A DNA stretch of 64,000 bases from Chiloscyllium plagiosum (Eukaryota), in the NCBI RefSeq assembly GCF_004010195.1, contig NC_057752.1, forward strand, positions 1 to 64,000, read 5' to 3'. A model generated the notes under the pieces. That model was not told the DNA's origin. It saw only the letters and a program-made list of their open reading frames with translations, and made no database searches. The position numbers and the translations under genes are program-made. Below, in pieces: positions 1 to 8,264 of the stretch; the first letter of the stretch is position 1; every line of letters starts with the position of its first letter.

Positions 1-1178
1 TGAGGGCAGAGTGGTAGATGTGATCTATATGGACTTCAGTAAGGCGCTCGACAAGGTTCCCCATGGGAGACTGGTGAGCAAGGTTAGATCTCATGGAGTA
101 CAGGGAGAACTTGCCATATCGATACAGAACTGGCTCAAAGATAGAAGACAGAGGGTGGTGGTGGAGGGTTGTTTTTCAGACTGGAGGCCTGTGACCAGTG
201 GAGTGCCACAAGGATTGGTGCTGGGTCCACTACTTTTCATCATTTATATAAATGATTTGGACGTGAGCATAAGAGGTATAGTTAGTAAGTTTGCTGATGA
301 CACCAAAATTGGAGGTGTAGTGGACAGCGAAGAAGGTAACCTCAGATTACAACGGGATCTTGATCAGATGAGTTAGTGGGCTGAGAAGTAGTAGATGGAG
401 TTTAATTTAGATAAATGCAAGGTGCTGCATTTTGGGAAAACAAATTTTAGCAGGACTTATACACTTAATAGTAAGGTCCTAGGAAGTGTTGCTGAACAAA
501 GAGACCTTAGAATGCAGGTTCATAGCTCCTTGAAAGTAGAGTCGCAGGTAGATAGGATAGTGAAGAAGGCGTTTGGTATGCTTTCCTTTATTAAGTCAGA
601 GTATTGAGTACAGGAGTTGGGAGGTCATATTGTGGCTGTACAGGCCACTGCTGGAATATTGCGTGTAATTCTGGTCTCCTTCCTATCGGAAAGATGTTCT
701 GAAACTTGAAAGCGTTCAGAAAAGATTTATAAGGATGTTGTCAGCGTTGGATAGGCTGGGGCTGTTTTCCTTGGAGCATCAGAGGCTGAGGGGGTGACCT
801 TATCGAGGTTTACAAAATCATGAGGGGCATCGATAGGATAAATAGACAAAGTCCTTTCCCTGGGGTGGGGGAGTCCAGAACTAGAGGGCATTAGTTTAGG
901 GTGAGAGGGGAAAGACATAAAAGGGACCTAAGAGGCAACTTTTTCACTCAGAGGTGGTACATGTATGGAATGAGCTGCCAGAGGAAGTGCTGGAGGCTGG
1001 TACAATTGCAACATTTAAAAGGCATCTGGATGGGTATATGAATAGGAAGGGTTTGGAGGGATATGGGCCGGGTGCTGGCAGATGGGACTAGGTTGGGTTG
1101 GGATATCTGGTCGGCATGGACGAGTTGGACCAAAGGGTCTGTTTCTGTGCTGTACATCTCTATGATTCTATTACTCTA
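1..1178 (+). mobile_element. CR1/HER1-type LINE, 3' part (RT domain to 3' tail), decayed
   Basis: Motifs DFSKALDKVPH, GVPQG, FADDTK and MEFNLDKCKVLHFG, with stops and frameshifts; ends in the CTATGATTCTA-type tail shared by other copies here. Confidence 0.9.
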
Positions 1179-1199: not shown

Positions 1200-2789
1200 G
1201 AGACAATTTTGGAATGTGGGATTAAGGATGTACCCATGGAGAATACCACTTGAGGGAAGGCAATTGCATAGCCTCACTCAGGACATATCCTGAACAGAGG
1301 GACTCGAGGCCAGCCCACAGCAAAGCCCCAAAACAAAGCCAAGCCTCGGCCAAACGGTTAAAGTTTTCTTCAGGATTTGGGCCGGCATGCCAATGCAGTT
1401 GCTGCCGGTATGTGGATTCATAACAGCAAAAATGTCCCACTAGACCTAAACAGAACTCATAGGCCATTAGCCAGGAGACTGTACACACTAGAAAGTCCAC
1501 CTACGTCAGGTCGAGAATAGTTAAATTGCTCAGCATCATCCAAATCAGAGCCAATCAAAATAAATGTCTGGTTCAATGGTCACCCAGTTCAAATAGAGGT
1601 TGATACCAGTGTGGCCATTTTGGTGATTGCAGAACCAGTCTTAGCAAAATTCGCTCTGACTCTAAACCTTGCATAAGCCCTCGGCTAGACTGAGAACCTA
1701 TACTAGGGAACCTTTACAGATTAAGGGTACAATTTCAACTCCGGTCTTTTATGGGAAGCAGCTGGTTCAGTTACCACTAATCGTAGTAAAAGGCTCGAGT
1801 CCAAGCTCAGTGGGGGGAAATTGACTAAGAAAAATTCAGCTTGATTGGCTCCACATTCTTTGATTAGAAAATGGCTGGCTGAGTGAAGTCCTAATTAACT
1901 ACCCAGAGGTTTTTCAGGAAAGCCTAGGGACTAACAAAGGAGCCCAAGGCCATCTGGCATGTTGACCAGAGAGTAATTCCATCATTCTGCAAGACCTGCC
2001 CAGTGCTTTTTGCACCACGGGCAAAAGTAGAGGCAGAAATCAGAAGGCTGGAAAGCAGATGAATCATCAAACCAGTCCAGTTTGCGGAATGGACAGCACT
2101 GGTCATAACGATCTTGCAGCCTGATGGGTCAGTTTGCCTTTGTGAGGTTTTTAAAATGATAAGCAGCTTTTCACAGCTGAATAAATACCCAATTCCTTGC
2201 ATAGGATTTATATACAAAGCTGATGCTGGGTGGGGGTGCTGTCCTTCATGAGCCATGTGCACTTATAATCGTGGTTAAATGAGAATTCCAAGAAGTATGC
2301 TACTTCTTGGGTTAATCATTAGAGTTTGTAGCAATATACAAGACTGTCATTTGGGATATTGTCAGCCTGTGCAATTTTCCAGCTGGCAATAGGGAATATT
2401 TTACAAGGTCTACCCTAGGTTGCTATTTATCTAAATGACGTGCTAATAACTGGGAAGATCAATAAGGAGCACTTAGAGAACATGGACGTCATCCTTCGAC
2501 ATTTCTCCCAGGCATATGCCTTAGAAGGAAAAATGTGTGTTCCAGGCACATAAGTGACTATAGAACTGACAAGACCGGGTTACACGTATTAGAAGATAAA
2601 GTGAGGGTAATCAAAGGTGTCCCAGCTCCCAAGTCTTTACCGGCACTTAAGACTTTCCTTGGGCTGGTGAATTATTACGAAAAGTACATAATCTGGCCTC
2701 TATCCTGGCACCTTTGCATCAACTGTTAAAGGATCAGTCTTCAAAATGGCCACGTAGTCAAGCCACCACTTTCAGGGAAATGAAGAAAC
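1200..2789 (+). mobile_element. Gypsy LTR-retrotransposon pol relic, 5' half (protease and RT)
   Basis: VWFNGHPVQIEVDTS (protease-like) near 1565-1610; VAIYLNDVLITG (YLDD-like) near 2420-2455; LKTFLGLVNYY at 2646-2680. Left boundary approximate. Confidence 0.8.
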
Positions 2790-3008
2790 TTTTTTTTTTC
2801 AAAAATATACTTTATTAATAAAATAATTTGATGGTCTGTACAGTTGGTCATGCCATACTTATGTAAACATGTACATACAGAGATCAGAATTTATCATTTT
2901 TATACAGGTCTGTACATTTTTCAATCATATGCCCATACAAATAGCTGAGGCGTCAGCAGAGCCCAAATGACTGCATGGGCCCCCTGTTCTTCGTTAGGCA
3001 GGCAGACT

Positions 3009-3329
3009 TTACACAGTGGTCTTTCCCCACCGCGCCTTGGCGGCAGCTGCCCCAAGCTTCAGCGCATCCCTCAACACGTAGTCCTGGACCTTGGAATGTG
3101 CCAGTCTGCAACACTCAGTCGGGGTCAACTCCTTCAGCTGGAAGATCAGCAGGTTTCGGACCACCCAGAGAGCGCCCTTCACCGAGTTGATGATCCTCCA
3201 GGCACAGTTGATGTTCGTCTTGGTGTGCGTCCCGGGGAACAGGCCGTAGAGCACGGAGTCCCGCGCCACGGCGCTGCTCGGGACGAACCTCGACAAACAC
3301 CACTGCATTCCTCTCCAGACTTCCTCTGC
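3009..3329 (-). pseudogene. C-terminal fragment of Tx1/L1-clade ORF2
   Basis: AEEVWRGMQWCLSRF...CAWRIINSVKGALWVVRNLLIFQ...ARWGKTTV* resembles the region after the CCHC motif of Tx1-type ORF2; followed by a 3' UTR and poly(A). Confidence 0.75.
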
Positions 3330-3702
3330 TTTTTTCAACACAAACGCACAAAAGCACTTTGTGCTCACTGCAACCAAATGAAGTCTTCTATCAGTCAGGC
3401 GGGGCCCTGCGACGTCACCTCACGCTCGTGGTGGCTGCGCCAAGGTTGAAGTCATTTCGACCTCCAATCAGCAATTCCCATCTCCTCAGCACGTCTTTCC
3501 TCGTCCATGTGGCCTACCGCCTCGCCTGAGTCCACCAGCTGCCGCTGCTGCTCCTCCGACAGGTTGGTTGTTTCATCGAGACTGGCATCAGCAATGTTTG
3601 GTCTCAGCCGTCCGACGGATGAAACGATTTCCTGCACATCCCGGAGCGTGAGTGCTCAGGATCCACTGCGGAAGTAGTGAAAGCAGGGCCTGCTGGTCAA
3701 TG

Positions 3703-3775
3703 GGGGGATTAGCTCAAATGGTAGAGCGCTCGCTTTGCATGCGAGAGGTAGCGGGATCGATGCCCGCATTCTCCA
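3703..3775 (+). tRNA. tRNA-Ala(TGC)
   Basis: 73-nt cloverleaf GGGGGATTAGCTCAAATGGTAGAGC...GATCGATGCCCGCATTCTCCA; anticodon loop TT-TGC-AT; G3:U70 Ala determinant; T-run terminator just downstream. Confidence 0.92.
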
Positions 3776-4329
3776 CTTATTTTTAAAAACGGCAAGTGCA
3801 ACCTCTCACTCGGCTGGTCTGCAGCAGCCGGAACACCGTTTGCGTACGCCGCCTCCCTGAGAGTGGTCCCGAAAGATCAAAAGCTTCACGCGTGAGCGAC
3901 AGGCCGGTCCAGCGTAGGAAGAAAGTCGAGCTGCGCGGCGAAGGCAAACGCCAGCGGCGTTGACGTTTTTATCTCTGCGGGTGAAAGTCAGCTCCTTGAA
4001 AGGATCACACCGGCGGTGGGTGAGCTGCCTGAGGTCAGCGGGCACGTCCTGGACGTGTTGGGAGGCAACTTGAACCAGTCGGTAAGTTGCGGCCCAAACC
4101 CTAACCTGACATGTACATGAAGCTGCGAGTCAGGTACTGTACCGGCAGAATCTGGCAGTTTCGGATCAGCACTCAAGACGATTTCTTCATGCCAGCACTG
4201 GCCGAAGCTGTGGAGATCAGCCAGTGGCTCAGGATCTCCCAGAGTGACAGATTTTCAGGGAGACAATGGCGTGACATTAGTGGAGGTGCGCAGCAAAGCA
4301 TCAGCAAGGGAGAGGCACTGCTGGGCCCT

Positions 4330-4409
4330 CCTTCGATAGCTCAGCTGGTAGAGCGGAGGACTGTAGTCTGTCGCAAATCTGTCATTCCTTAGATCGCCGG
4401 CTCGAAGGG
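4330..4409 (+). pseudogene. tRNA-Tyr(GTA) pseudogene with intron, T-loop/B-box deleted
   Basis: Canonical 5' half CCTTCGATAGCTCAGCTGGTAGAGCGGAGGACTGTAG, then a ~17-18 nt intron, then TCCTTAGATCG-CCGGCTCGAAGG with no GTTCRA loop. Confidence 0.85.
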
Positions 4410-4956
4410 GCCTCAGCTGCTTTTTGGAAAGAGTGCGCATTCACCAGCACGCGGGCCACAGCAACACAGATGAGCTGAAAACGCGACAACGCTTTCAGGA
4501 CGCATCGGCACACACCCTTGCCCCTCTGCAACCAGTCAGCTGTCCCCCTGCCGCGGCTGCAGCTGACGGCCAGCAGGGTGCCCTGTTTTCAACCCCAACA
4601 CACAAAAGCGCTTTGTGCTCACTGCAACCAAATGAAGTCTTCTATCAGTCAGGCGGGGCCACCCGACGTCACCTCACGCTCGTGGTGGCTGCGCCAAGGT
4701 TGAAGTCGTTTTGACCTCCAGTCAGCAATTGCCATCTCCCCAGCACTTCTTTCCTCGTCCATGTGGCCTTCCGCCTCGCCTGAGTCCACCAGCTGCCGCT
4801 GCTGCTCCACCGACAAGTTGGCCGTTTCACCGAGACCGGCATCAGCAATGTTTGGTCTCAGCCGTCCGACAGATGAGAGGATTTCCTGCACATCCCGGAG
4901 CGTGAGTGCTCAGGATCCACTGCGGAAGTAGTGAAAGCAGGGCCTGCTGGTCGATG

Positions 4957-5029
4957 GGGGGATTAGCTCAAATGGTAGAGCGCTCGCTTTGCATGCGAGA
5001 GGTAGCGGGATCGATGCCCGCATTCTCCA
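4957..5029 (+). tRNA. tRNA-Ala(TGC)
   Basis: Identical to 3703-3775; followed by TTTT. Confidence 0.92.
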
Positions 5030-5582
5030 CATGCTTTTAAAACGGCAAGTGCAACCTCTCACTCGGCTGGTCTGCAGCAGCCGGAATACCGTTTGCGTAC
5101 GCCGCCTCCCTGAGAGTGGTCCCGAAAGATCAAAAGCTTCACGCGTGAGCGACAGGCCGGTCCAGCGTAGGAAGAAAGTCGAGCTGCGCGGCGAAGGCAA
5201 ACGCCAGCGGCGTTGACGTTTTTATCTCTGCGGGTGAAAGTCAGCTCCTTGAAAGGATCACACCGGCGGTGGGTGAGCTGCCTGAGGTCAGCGGGCACGT
5301 CCTGGACGTGTTGGGAGGCAACTTGAACCAGACGGTAAGTTGCGGCCCAAACCCTAACCTGACGTGTACATGAAGCTGCGAGTCAGGTACTGTACCGGTA
5401 GAATCTGGCAGTTTCGGATGAGCACTCAAGACGATTTCTTCATGCCAGCACTGGCCGAAGCTGTGGAGATCAGCCAGTGGCTCAGGATCTCCCAGAGTGA
5501 CAGATTTTCAGGGAGACAACAGCGTGACATGAGTGGAGGAGCGCGGCAAAGCATCAGCAAGGGACAGCCACTGCTGGGTTCT

Positions 5583-5662
5583 CCTTCGATAGCTCAGCTG
5601 GTAGAGCGGAGGACTGTAGTCTGTCGCAAATCTGTCATTCCTTAGATCGCCGGCTCGAAGGG
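5583..5662 (+). pseudogene. tRNA-Tyr(GTA) pseudogene with intron, T-loop/B-box deleted
   Basis: Same sequence and same deletion as 4330-4409. Confidence 0.85.
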
Positions 5663-6209
5663 GCCTCAGCTGCTTTTTGGAAAGAGTGCGCATTCACCAG
5701 CACGCGGGCCACAGCAACACAGATGAGCTGAAAACGCGACAACGCTTTCAGGACGCATCGGCACACACCCTTGCCCCTCTGCAACCAGTCAGCTGTCTCC
5801 CTGCCGCGGCTGCAGCTGACGGCCAGCAGGGTGCCCTTTTTTCAACCCCAACACACAAAAGCGCTTTGTGCTCACTGCAACCAAATGAAGTCTTCTATCA
5901 GTCAGGCGGGGCCCTGCGACGTCACCTCACGCTCGTGGTGGCTGCGCCAAGGTTGAAGTCGTTTCGACCTCCAGTCAGCAATTGCCATCTCCCCAGCACT
6001 TCTTTCCTCGTCCATGTGTCGTCCCGCCCCGCCTGAGTCCACCAGCTGCCGCTGCTGCACCTCCGACAAGTTGGTCGTTTCACCGAGACCGGCATCAGCA
6101 ATGTTTGGTCCCAGCCGTCCGACGGATGAGAGAATTCCCTGCACATCCCGGAGCGTGGCTGCTTAGGATCCACTGCCGAAGGAGTGAAGTCAGGGCTGGC
6201 TGTCCAACT

Positions 6210-6282
6210 GGGGGATTAGCACAAATGGTAGAGCGCTCGCTTTGCATGCGAGAGGTAGCGGGATCGATGCCCGCATTCTCCA
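6210..6282 (+). tRNA. tRNA-Ala(TGC), D-stem variant
   Basis: Matches the other copies except GCTC>GCAC, a mismatch in the D-stem/A-box. Confidence 0.8.
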
Positions 6283-6430
6283 CATGCTTTTAAAACGGCA
6301 AGTGCAACCTCTCACTCGGCTGGTCTGCAGCAGCCGGAATACCGTTTGCGTACGCCGCCTCCCTGAGAGTGGTCCCGAAAGATCAAAAGCTTCACGCGTG
6401 AGCGACAGGCCGGTCCAGCGTAGGAAGAAA

Positions 6431-6574
6431 GTCTTCGAACCCGCAGCACTCCAGCAAAATCTTCTTCACAAACACTGTCCGATCGACCGGTGTGTGCTCC
6501 TCCACCTTCTTCACAGTCACCCTGACTGTGTTGGGAATGCCCTGGCCAGGGCTGCGAGCGGCTGCTGAGGCCAT
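6431..6574 (-). pseudogene. N-terminal 48 codons of Tx1-like ORF1
   Basis: MASAAARSPGQGIPNTVRVTVKKVEEHTPVDRTVFVKKILLECCGFED follows a ~240-nt leader and stops abruptly at the tRNA array. Confidence 0.65.
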
Positions 6575-6810
6575 AGCTCTGAGGTTGGCTGGTACCTGAA
6601 TTGGCGTTCGGCCGAAGCCAGCATAAAGATCCACCAAGAGCAGGTCAGCACAACCAAACGATCCTCCAACGTCCAATCACAATCCAGCAATGGTCTCCAG
6701 CCGCTCCGACGACTCGCAATACGATCCCCGTGGTTTCTCCCCCGCCAGCACACGTCCGCTGCGTCGAACCGACAGCACTCGAGCAGAATCTCTTCCTCTG
6801 GTCCTCAGGA

Positions 6811-6847
6811 ACTACACATATTCCGAGCCAAAAGGCCGAGAAGCGAT
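6811..6847 (-). ncRNA. U2 snRNA 5' fragment (nt 1-37) forming the head of the insertion
   Basis: Minus strand ATCGCTTCTCGGCCTTTTGGCTcgGAatAtGTGTAGT versus vertebrate U2 ATCGCTTCTCGGCCTTTTGGCTAAGATCAAGTGTAGT: first 22 nt exact, 32/37 identical, no gaps. Confidence 0.9.
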
Positions 6848-7372
6848 GAAGAAACAGCTATCATCATCAAAGGTGTTGGTGTACTGTGATCCCAAGCAAG
6901 ATCTGGTATTGACATGCAATGCTTCCCCATACGCCATTGGGATCTATTAGCTCATAGGTGGCCCAATGGAGAGAAACGCCCACTAGCAGAAGTCCTGGAT
7001 GCGCACGATAATGCAAAGCATAAATATGCCCAGATACAGAAGGTAGGTTTGGCAATCATATTTGGAGTCAGGAAGTTCTACCAATACCTTTACAGATGTA
7101 AATTTGTAATAATGAACCACAAACCCCTGCTAGACGACAAGACAGTGCCGCCCATAGCTTCAGGCCACATTCAGCGGTGGACTCTAATACAAAGTGAGTA
7201 TAATTACAAGTTGGATTGCTGTCTGGAAGGCAAAGTAGCAAATGCAAGTGCATTGAGTCACTGCCCAGTGGGGACACTTCCAGTCACAGCTGACAATATC
7301 AGACTTTGGACACAGAGATCTGGTCCTGGCAAAACTGAAACAGCTGGTGGAGATGGGGGAAACCAAAGGGCT
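6846..7372 (+). mobile_element. Gypsy pol relic, 3' continuation (RNase H region)
   Basis: MKKQLSSSKVLVYCDPKQDLVLTCNASPYAIG, KYAQIQKVGLAIIFGVRKFYQYL and NHKPL. Confidence 0.85.
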
Positions 7373-8264
7373 GATAGTAAATATGAGGGAAGAAAGGAAG
7401 CACCAGTTAAGTGTTGATGGTTGCAATTCTACTTCATCTGACACTAAAGCAATTTTGCTTCATCTTTTTAATCCTTTTGTGGCAGCCACTGCTTACGCTG
7501 GGGCCTGAAGTGGACATTATGCTCGTTTTAAGGCAGCAAATGGGGAATGTCTGTAAAATGTTCCAACCCCATGTCGGACAGCTTTCAAGCAGCCTTTGGA
7601 CATTGGCTGTCATTGCACACATTTTCAACCGAAGGTCCAATATCTTTCTGTCTGGATTGCTCAGCAACACCTGTAGAGTGCAGGTAGATATTGATCCTTG
7701 GGAGAGTATAATCCTTCTGAAATTTTAAACAAGCCAATCTGATTAAAGACTACAGCAGGTAGGCTGAAATGTGGAGTTGTAGCCACAATCAGATCAGCCT
7801 TATTAAATAGTAGAGCATATTTGAGGGGCCTGCTTCTAATTTGCATGTTTCTTTTTAATATGTTGGGATCTTGACTGGACAACTTTTTAAAAGGATGAAA
7901 TTCACATCATTCATCCTTCTCCCCTGTGCTTGCAGAAGTAGATTAACAAGTTAGTCCAGCAAGACCTCAATCTTAAAATTCACGTGTGCTTTCAAATGCT
8001 TGCACCCTTCTCTGTCTGTAACCTTTTCCAGCCTCACAACATCTTCCAAATCTGTAGCTCTTCTGATTCTAGCCTCTTTAACATGCACTCACATACAGAC
8101 TTGTTCCTTTGTTTCCAAAAATAAACTTTTTTGTAAAATACTCAAACAAACGTTATAAACGTTTCAACTTGAATTACAACATTTACAAGAAAATTCATCT
8201 TCTTGCTGTACAGCACCTTCCATGCACAAGACAATTGTCATAGACACAATTGTCATAGACTAAG

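Follow-up and report, generated by a model that had tools for sequence, protein, structure and literature searches.

In the first 64,000 nucleotides of contig NC_057752.1 of Chiloscyllium plagiosum (assembly GCF_004010195.1), the stretch of DNA that was analysed and is called the window here, positions 2780-6855 of the minus strand are occupied by a single retroposed insertion in which the interior of a long interspersed nuclear element (LINE) has given way to an array of transfer RNA (tRNA) genes. Searches of the 3.56-Gb assembly place this insertion in a family of chimeric copies at 14 loci. The junction between the array and the LINE tail is common to all of them, whereas the junction between the array and the LINE part that precedes it is private to each copy in which it can be read. 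The combination of a shared 3′ junction with private 5′ junctions points to the antisense tRNA-Ala/pseudo-Tyr array together with the last 540 bp of the LINE as the mobile, inherited module. The best explanation, which we place slightly on the probable side, is that this small family of chimeric U2-headed Tx1-type LINE copies arose by movement of the array and tail module, the 5′ LINE part being newly acquired each time by a template switch. The system is real and mobilised. Its novelty lies in a kilobase-scale array module with fresh LINE junctions, LINE chimerism and U2-headed Tx1 LINEs being already known.

One shared junction and eleven private ones

A 40-mer across the array-to-tail junction was found at 14 places with different flanks, with at most two mismatches, and its reversed control had no occurrence. 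Over a stretch of 120 nt across the same junction, the 13 other loci (L023-L035) are 98-100% identical. All of them end at one poly(A) site, and the 13 arrays begin at as many different points. At the common 3′ junction a single G is shared between array sequence (...GTTGAAAAAA) and LINE sequence (GCAGAGG). A preliminary description of the window had proposed a search of the genome with both junctions, and recurrence was found for this one and not for the other: of the 40-mer that spans head and array there is a single occurrence in 3.56 Gb, that of the window, and the window was the only full-length match to 120 nt of that junction among the 40 scored of 283 candidates. The architecture in which both LINE ends are kept is a one-off. 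The same description had suggested that head, array and tail could be a non-autonomous vehicle, and the other loci do not support a defined element of this kind: a family of internally deleted, non-autonomous LINEs has the same internal junctions at several loci, and here the 3′ junction is present at 14 places and the 5′ junction at one, with LINE bodies that differ in the other copies.

The array content of the 13 other copies ranges from at least 82 to 2,600 bp, and the window combines the longest array of the family (3,104 bp) with the shortest LINE 5′ part. Ten of these 13 copies have a LINE body in the same orientation directly abutting the array. The adjoining LINE piece of L025 (7861-8154) is inverted, as in twin-priming products, and in L028 and L033 the junction is masked by N (the LINE interior is masked in these two and in L036-L037, L042 and L045). 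The LINE body that precedes the array varies widely among the 13 copies, and L026 retains endonuclease and reverse transcriptase (RT) sequence there. All 11 readable junctions, that of the window included, are different; they display 0-3 nt of microhomology and are free of filler, and the LINE parent continues differently beyond every one of them. The 14 breakpoints on the array side, phased by hand, showed no clear clustering at tRNA positions, and those of the window and L032, although 4-5 nt apart, are within chance.

Where the 5′ end could be fixed well enough for a call, target-site duplications (TSDs) bracket LINE part, array and tail together (16 bp in L023, where the TSD is flush with U2 nt 1; 14 bp in L027; 13 bp in L029; 8 bp in L024), and these chimeras therefore integrated as wholes. 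One TSD and one poly(A) tail around both parts, with 0-3 nt of microhomology at 11 junctions, are what characterises a LINE chimeric retro-insertion.

A further property of the family is that the number of LINE bases missing upstream of the fixed tail start tracks the number of array bases present (Spearman 0.945, n = 11), a value that was reached by 1 of 20,000 permutations; the slope without the window is 0.81. This relation was obtained from the 11 copies with a readable junction, L025, L028 and L033 being excluded, and from LINE positions measured on L026. By that measure the LINE of the window lacks about 4,365 bases; by L045 or L042, which have masked interiors, it would lack up to about 5,500-5,900.

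Structure of the insertion in the window

Read on the minus strand from 6855 to 2780, the insertion consists of the U2 head, a leader, the start of open reading frame 1 (ORF1), the array, the ORF2 C-terminus, the 3′ untranslated region (UTR), AATAAA and A10. Its features are the following.

2780-2789, no strand: TSD copy beside the poly(A) tail, reading ATGAAGAAAC on the plus strand; the 10 bp recur without mismatch at 6846-6855 (repeat family D17)
2790-2799, minus: poly(A) tail, A10, by direct reading of the sequence
2800-3011, minus: LINE 3′ UTR with the ORF2 stop (3011-3009) and AATAAA (2816-2811), by direct reading and open frame
3012-3329, minus: LINE ORF2 C-terminus, last 106 codons; open frame, matching the C-terminal coding part of L044 and L045
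3330-6433, minus: tRNA array, antisense to the LINE; 3,104 bp, equal to 2.47 units of about 1,254 bp (repeat families D1-D3)
3703-3776, plus: tRNA-Ala(TGC) gene of unit 1, followed by a T5 terminator (ARAGORN; Rfam tRNA 59.3 bits)
4330-4413, plus: tRNA-Tyr pseudogene with intron, without 11 nt of the T arm, by alignment to Tyr genes of native arrays
4957-5030, plus: tRNA-Ala(TGC) gene of unit 2 (ARAGORN; Rfam tRNA 59.3 bits)
5583-5666, plus: second copy of the tRNA-Tyr pseudogene with the same 11-nt deletion, by the same alignment
6210-6283, plus: tRNA-Ala(TGC) gene of unit 3, with one D-stem mismatch (ARAGORN; Rfam tRNA 52.7 bits)
6434-6574, minus: LINE ORF1 start, first 47 codons; ATG at 6574-6572, open frame
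6575-6806, minus: LINE leader (5′ UTR), 94-97% identical to at least 40 other copies
6807-6847, minus: 5′ head derived from U2 small nuclear RNA (snRNA), corresponding to U2 nt 1 to about 41 by Rfam U2 and overlapping the TSD with its first two bases
6846-6855, no strand: TSD copy at the 5′ end, exact direct repeat (D17), with two paralogous empty sites

The exact 10-bp TSD, the A10 tail and the paralogous empty sites bear out the preliminary reading of one TSD-bounded, poly(A)-tailed retroposed unit. In two paralogues of the host repeat, the sequences that flank the insertion on either side in the window join directly, with a single TSD 10-mer as their entire overlap; the insertion boundaries and the TSD are therefore real. 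The host DNA is a diverged repeat with the RNase H-like domain of long terminal repeat (LTR) retrotransposons, and its family is very abundant (3,709 first-look candidates, 75-80% identity). The host site (window 2466-2729 and 6890-7417) corresponds to a decayed LTR-retrotransposon pol remnant, with an RT_RNaseH match at 4.8e-09.

The array has a period of 1253-1254 bp, and a half-unit tree distinguishes unit types A, B and C. A T-run terminator is retained at each of the three tRNA-Ala genes of the window. Neither Tyr-like gene (4330-4413, 5583-5666) was called by ARAGORN or Rfam, and because 11 nt of the T arm are missing in comparison with the intact native Tyr genes, both copies are regarded as pseudogenes. 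The earlier claim that the cargo is a genomic array and not mature tRNA holds in that spacers, terminators and the Tyr intron are kept; it has to be amended in that the Tyr genes are dead and only tRNA-Ala is callable. Each of the two junctions has 1 nt of microhomology, the G at 6433 being common to array and LINE on the head side and the G at 3329 to LINE and array on the tail side.

Regarding the LINE-derived parts, the Rfam U2 match to window 6847-6807 scores 25.1 bits (E 0.038, under the gathering score), and the first 22 nt of the head are identical to the displayed consensus. The head, initially read as U2 nt 1-37, reaches to about nt 41 and is not special to the chimera, since the whole LINE family has it. 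The ORF1 start is present as described, with 47 whole codons plus 1 nt, reaching 6433, instead of 48 codons. The roughly 106 C-terminal codons assigned to ORF2 are there (3329-3012, stop 3011-3009), and Pfam gave this piece (3012-3329) no match of its own. The 3′ UTR is 94-97% identical to the 3′ ends of the ordinary LINE copies L042-L045. As the description had stated, endonuclease and RT are gone from the window copy, in which no such sequence is left; none of the Pfam domains seen in L026 and L042 (RNA-binding, zf-CCHC, Exo_endo_phos, RVT_1) is retained.

The LINE that serves as vehicle

The 415-bp head (6847-6433) is present in at least 40 scored copies on many contigs, with 94-97% identity (the first look gave 713 candidates for the head and 1,354 for the tail). 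The same U2 head was found in nine of the nine other copies that were read, with nine different upstream flanks, and is therefore a trait of the whole LINE family, that is, background and not novelty. The 5′ ends of these nine copies fall at U2 nt 1-4 in seven and deeper within the U2-derived part in two. Past the equivalent of 6433, other copies continue as ORF1 where readable, one locus being masked a few bases further. In ordinary copies, the ORF1 frame continues into two ZCCHC3-type RNA-binding domains and a CCHC knuckle. Pfam analysis of the copies L026 and L042 identified Exo_endo_phos (3.1e-11), RVT_1 (7e-36), RBD_ZCCHC3_1st and 2nd, and zf-CCHC. This is the Tx1-type set of domains, with an APE-type endonuclease and an RT in ORF2, and RNA-binding domains and CCHC in ORF1. 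Among the 120 best relatives listed for the RT piece, the EN-RT-zf-RVT layout is seen; one of them, with 44% identity, is named 'transposon TX1 uncharacterized 149 kDa protein' and most are nameless. The vehicle is accordingly described as a probable Tx1-type LINE, an assignment made from domains and relatives.

A point that lies 3-21 nt beyond the 415-bp head (...GAAGCAGCGGACGTG|TACTGCC...) has been struck repeatedly. It holds head-head tandems, a tail fragment of 390 bp and, from other copies, two poly(A) ends (L003 1900-1970; L005 about 580-625, minus strand; L026 3872-3886, 4275-4290 and 9143-9160; L039 9508-9530), and tandem head matches are also present on C13, C14, C26 and C28. These positions suggest that the LINE may prefer to insert into its own ORF1 at a hot spot just past the head. 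The point at which the LINE 5′ part of the window ends adjoins this site, at which LINE copies are nested or stacked in L003, L005, L026 and L039. Within the leader, 6795-6746 is a diverged duplicate (84-87%) of the ORF1 stretch at the end of the head (6461-6433 and onward), which looks like a remnant of an earlier event at the hot spot, since incorporated into the family's 5′ end. In L004 and L025, the poly(A) of a tail is directly followed by another LINE head.

Ages, unit types and array sources

Over a shared 0.9 kb, the window differs from L029, L030 and L031 by 1.6-1.8%, while L027 is about 7-8% and L033 about 11-12% away from the others. From this spread of divergences it follows that the array-to-tail junction has been copied over a long period. 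In the half-unit tree, read outwards from the tail with types A, B, C and C′, the window has the order A-B-C, L030 A-B, L031 and L032 A-C, L023 C′-C and L026 C′. L031 exceeds the window by 508 nt in type C, so that the window is neither the parent of L031 nor the sole source. The two parts of the chimeras also differ in their divergence: between L023 and L026, the LINE parts are 89.6% and array plus tail 95.1% identical, and between L029 and L033 the values are 89.1% and 82.4%. Such discordance fits the joining of separate lineages better than a single founder. A tree of ORF1 from chimeric and ordinary copies had seven usable rows and was uninformative.

Native arrays of the same unit are located on the unplaced contigs C98128 and C100006, with 85-89% identity, and none of them carries the array-to-tail junction; a 5′ transduction by a LINE copy within a tRNA array would have cargo and LINE side by side at its source locus. 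Two candidates for the source were discarded. The array on C98128 reaches no more than 88% identity and has a broken Ala gene and an intact Tyr gene. L039, on C100006, has 85-89% identity and a different array-to-LINE junction, 36 bp from the founding array-to-tail junction in the same spacer, and represents an older, independent chimera. The native array on C98128 (L037 2547-7057) abuts about 9.4 kb of masked sequence (L036 3123-10000, L037 1-2546). In addition, lone fragments of array spacer of about 190-200 bp, 92-96% identical to the cargo, are found in unrelated surroundings in L040 (2873-3070, on C39) and L041 (2735-2922, on C16). They extend from just past the Tyr terminator to the T/A run of the spacer and are without LINE tail or poly(A); that of L040 is flanked by a GAATTAAT repeat.

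How the chimeras may have formed

In the favoured explanation, the LINE RT would start on an array-linked tail during target-primed reverse transcription, the tail (ORF2 C-terminus, 3′ UTR and poly(A) signal) being what would let the LINE enzyme begin. Stringent recognition of the 3′ tail is established for many LINEs. The RT would proceed into the array for a variable distance, switch without homology to a LINE RNA and continue toward the 5′ end of that RNA, and every such event would create a LINE-to-array junction of its own. In the window copy, the switch would have landed at the end of the 415-bp head, leaving neither endonuclease nor RT. As a side effect, tRNA-Ala genes would be copied to new loci with their own flanks and terminators. 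We infer that the joining step was a template switch at the level of RNA, and likewise what the source RNA was. Template switching and twin priming are given as accepted routes to LINE chimeras in the passages of PMC13174262 and PMC4494074 that deal with them.

Several points weigh against this explanation. Random template switching does not predict the length relation, which is unexplained; nested insertion and a founder with deletions likewise do not predict it, and its possible causes are an acceptor LINE RNA lying in register at the shared tail or the replacement of the 3′ part of a resident LINE. The order of units varies among copies (A-B-C, A-B, A-C, C′-C), which means that more than one source, or slippage between units, is also needed. 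Plain 5′-truncated copies without LINE upstream are expected from use of the module in trans, and there is none among the 11 other copies with a readable junction. The assembly yielded no source locus, for which either a tail within a native array or a tail joined to 3.1 kb or more of array, with no LINE before it, would qualify. An antisense transcript of the array was likewise not found, and about 2 in 100 of the raw RNA reads of one run gave no match to 6290-6950. Finally, the joining step could have occurred at the DNA level instead. An extension of the template switch that bears on the lengths, and that we regard as speculative and rather doubtful, is that two RNAs with a common 3′ tail are held in register, that the enzyme leaving the array-tail RNA re-enters the LINE RNA at a similar distance from the tail, and that a parasitic array plus tail RNA exploits this and spreads working tRNA-Ala genes. 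It would amount to retrovirus-like copy-choice between co-held templates, in a LINE.

All copies might instead descend from one founder chimera, made of a nearly full LINE, a long array and the tail, through loss of the stretch at the border by an intramolecular RT jump or by deletion. The constant 3′ junction and the presence of LINE upstream in every readable copy would follow naturally, and the length relation would amount to a roughly constant total length. We consider this course of events unlikely, as no border occurs twice (11 of 11 readable borders differ), the deletion would have to keep nearly the same size while its position shifts, and the LINE and array-tail parts are discordant in their divergence; over the short stretches compared, the LINE part of L030 is closer to the ordinary copy L042 (95.5%) than to the LINE part of L023 (94.0%). 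Discordant divergence, together with private borders, a same-orientation LINE always upstream and the coupling of replaced and replacing lengths, would be explained if the poly(A) end of a resident LINE were the place where array-tail RNA is reverse-transcribed, or where its cDNA repairs a break, with replacement of the resident's 3′ part and retention of the resident's TSDs. The heads that follow directly on tail poly(A) in L004 and L025 indicate that LINE 3′ ends do serve as targets. Most resident LINEs are short, to judge from the 1,354 tail and 713 head candidates, and long cDNAs should overrun into non-LINE DNA, which was seen in none of the copies; the inverted LINE piece of L025 fits twin priming during insertion better, and no intermediate or orthologous state from before the replacement is at hand. 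Such a replacement at the DNA level is, in our opinion, improbable. Separate gene conversion of each copy after its insertion was rejected as a general cause, since it needs 14 independent events and leaves the L025 inversion unexplained.

The window copy could also be regarded as a master, transcribed from the LINE head, with both junctions fixed, which seeds tRNA arrays as a defined non-autonomous element. It has a poly(A) signal, a TSD and a complete 5′ end that begins with U2 nt 1, it is the least different from the family majority over the shared 0.9 kb (five private and two shared-minor differences), L030 also has the unit order A-B, and an array-tail copy that became nested in the hot spot behind the head could have given rise to a master. 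This proposal is very doubtful given that the head-to-array 40-mer occurs once in the assembly, that the window's 5′ junction is absent from all 11 other copies whose junction can be read, that the window cannot be the parent of L031 with its extra 508 nt of type C, and that U2 1-41 has no known internal promoter in the account of PMC4494074 on such heads. An assembly artefact, namely a true LINE insertion with its interior misjoined to an array near the start of contig C43, has in its favour the position of the element 2.8-6.9 kb from the contig start, the uniqueness of the 5′ junction, and the short-read contigs over 6290-6950, which are short, fragmentary and from many LINE copies, none of those listed bridging 6433 or 6855. 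We think it highly improbable, because both ends are correct against a 10-bp TSD with paralogous empty sites, chimeras of the same kind exist at 13 other loci, four of them within their own TSDs, and the junction is clean, with 1 nt of microhomology like the others.

Relation to known elements

The LINE and its cargo have partial parallels in several published systems. Tx1 families with U1- or U2-derived 5′ ends that reside outside snRNA genes are reported in the relevant part of Kojima (2015, PMC4494074), the crocodilian Tx1-11_Crp among them, and template switching is invoked there for such 5′ additions. As in those families, a Tx1-type LINE outside U2 genes bears a short U2-derived 5′ end; unlike the family described here, the crocodilian U1- or U2-headed families are presented in that account without a tRNA array. 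Keno comprises Tx1 LINEs specific for U2 genes, and Dewa is a zebrafish LINE that resides in the spacer of tandem tRNA genes, according to passages of PMC4494074 and PMC3706591. The likeness to Keno is the link with U2. In contrast to the single site in U2 snRNA genes that those passages assign to Keno, the copies analysed here are dispersed outside U2 genes, that of the window in an LTR-retrotransposon RNase H remnant and nine others scattered. The likeness to Dewa, as summarised in the same passages, is the link with the spacer of a tRNA array, in which the founding junction and that of L039 lie 36 bp apart; the difference is that here the array is within the element and does not surround it, the stretch beside the native array being masked.

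Chimeras of LINE-1 with small RNAs, such as U6/L1 and tRNA-half/L1, are described in portions of PMC13174262. They resemble the present family in three ways: foreign sequence and a LINE 3′ part share a single TSD and a single poly(A), the junction has little or no homology, and the tRNA parts are antisense to the LINE. As characterised in those portions, the LINE-1 partners, located at the 5′ end, are small RNAs, mature or cleaved and tens of bases long, each of them a one-off, whereas the partner here is an unprocessed gene array of up to 3.1 kb, its tail junction is inherited at 14 loci, and LINE sequence resumes upstream of the foreign part.

Short interspersed nuclear elements (SINEs) combine a tRNA-derived head with a LINE-derived tail, and SVA is a composite retroposon. 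Like them, the family has a non-coding module with a LINE tail, moved by LINE enzymes. Unlike the sense RNA polymerase III (pol III) promoter head at the 5′ end of a SINE, all tRNA genes of the module are internal and on the opposite strand, so that they are unable to drive the transcript of the element; furthermore, there is no fixed 5′ end and the copy number is tiny in comparison with SINEs and SVA. A limited full-text literature search yielded no kilobase-scale, unprocessed tRNA array borne on a LINE tail and recurring at many loci with fresh LINE junctions.

Dispersed tRNA-Ala genes and their significance

Besides the three genes of the window, ARAGORN predicted 11 tRNA-Ala genes in eight of the 13 other loci, which gives 14 genes at nine loci. 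The suggestion that the chimera is a mobile vehicle for pol III gene cassettes agrees with these callable genes and with the array-to-tail junction at 14 places, and does not agree with the head-to-array junction, present once. Four of the 11 genes have the anticodon CGC instead of TGC, all of them in the tail-adjacent unit. At this position the tRNA-Ala gene has CGC in L025, L027, L030 and L032, and TGC in four others, including the window (3736-3738). Since the change from CGC to TGC is of the CpG type, TGC may have originated on more than one occasion.

The family is small and its tRNA-Ala copies are predicted genes. It documents how pol III genes, whole and unprocessed, can reach new chromosomes on a LINE tail, spacers and terminators included, and this transfer differs from the formation of retrocopies of mature tRNA. 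It further provides a natural series of recombinants, with one fixed junction and 11 readable private ones so far, whose length-matched geometry could inform how LINE reverse transcriptases change templates.

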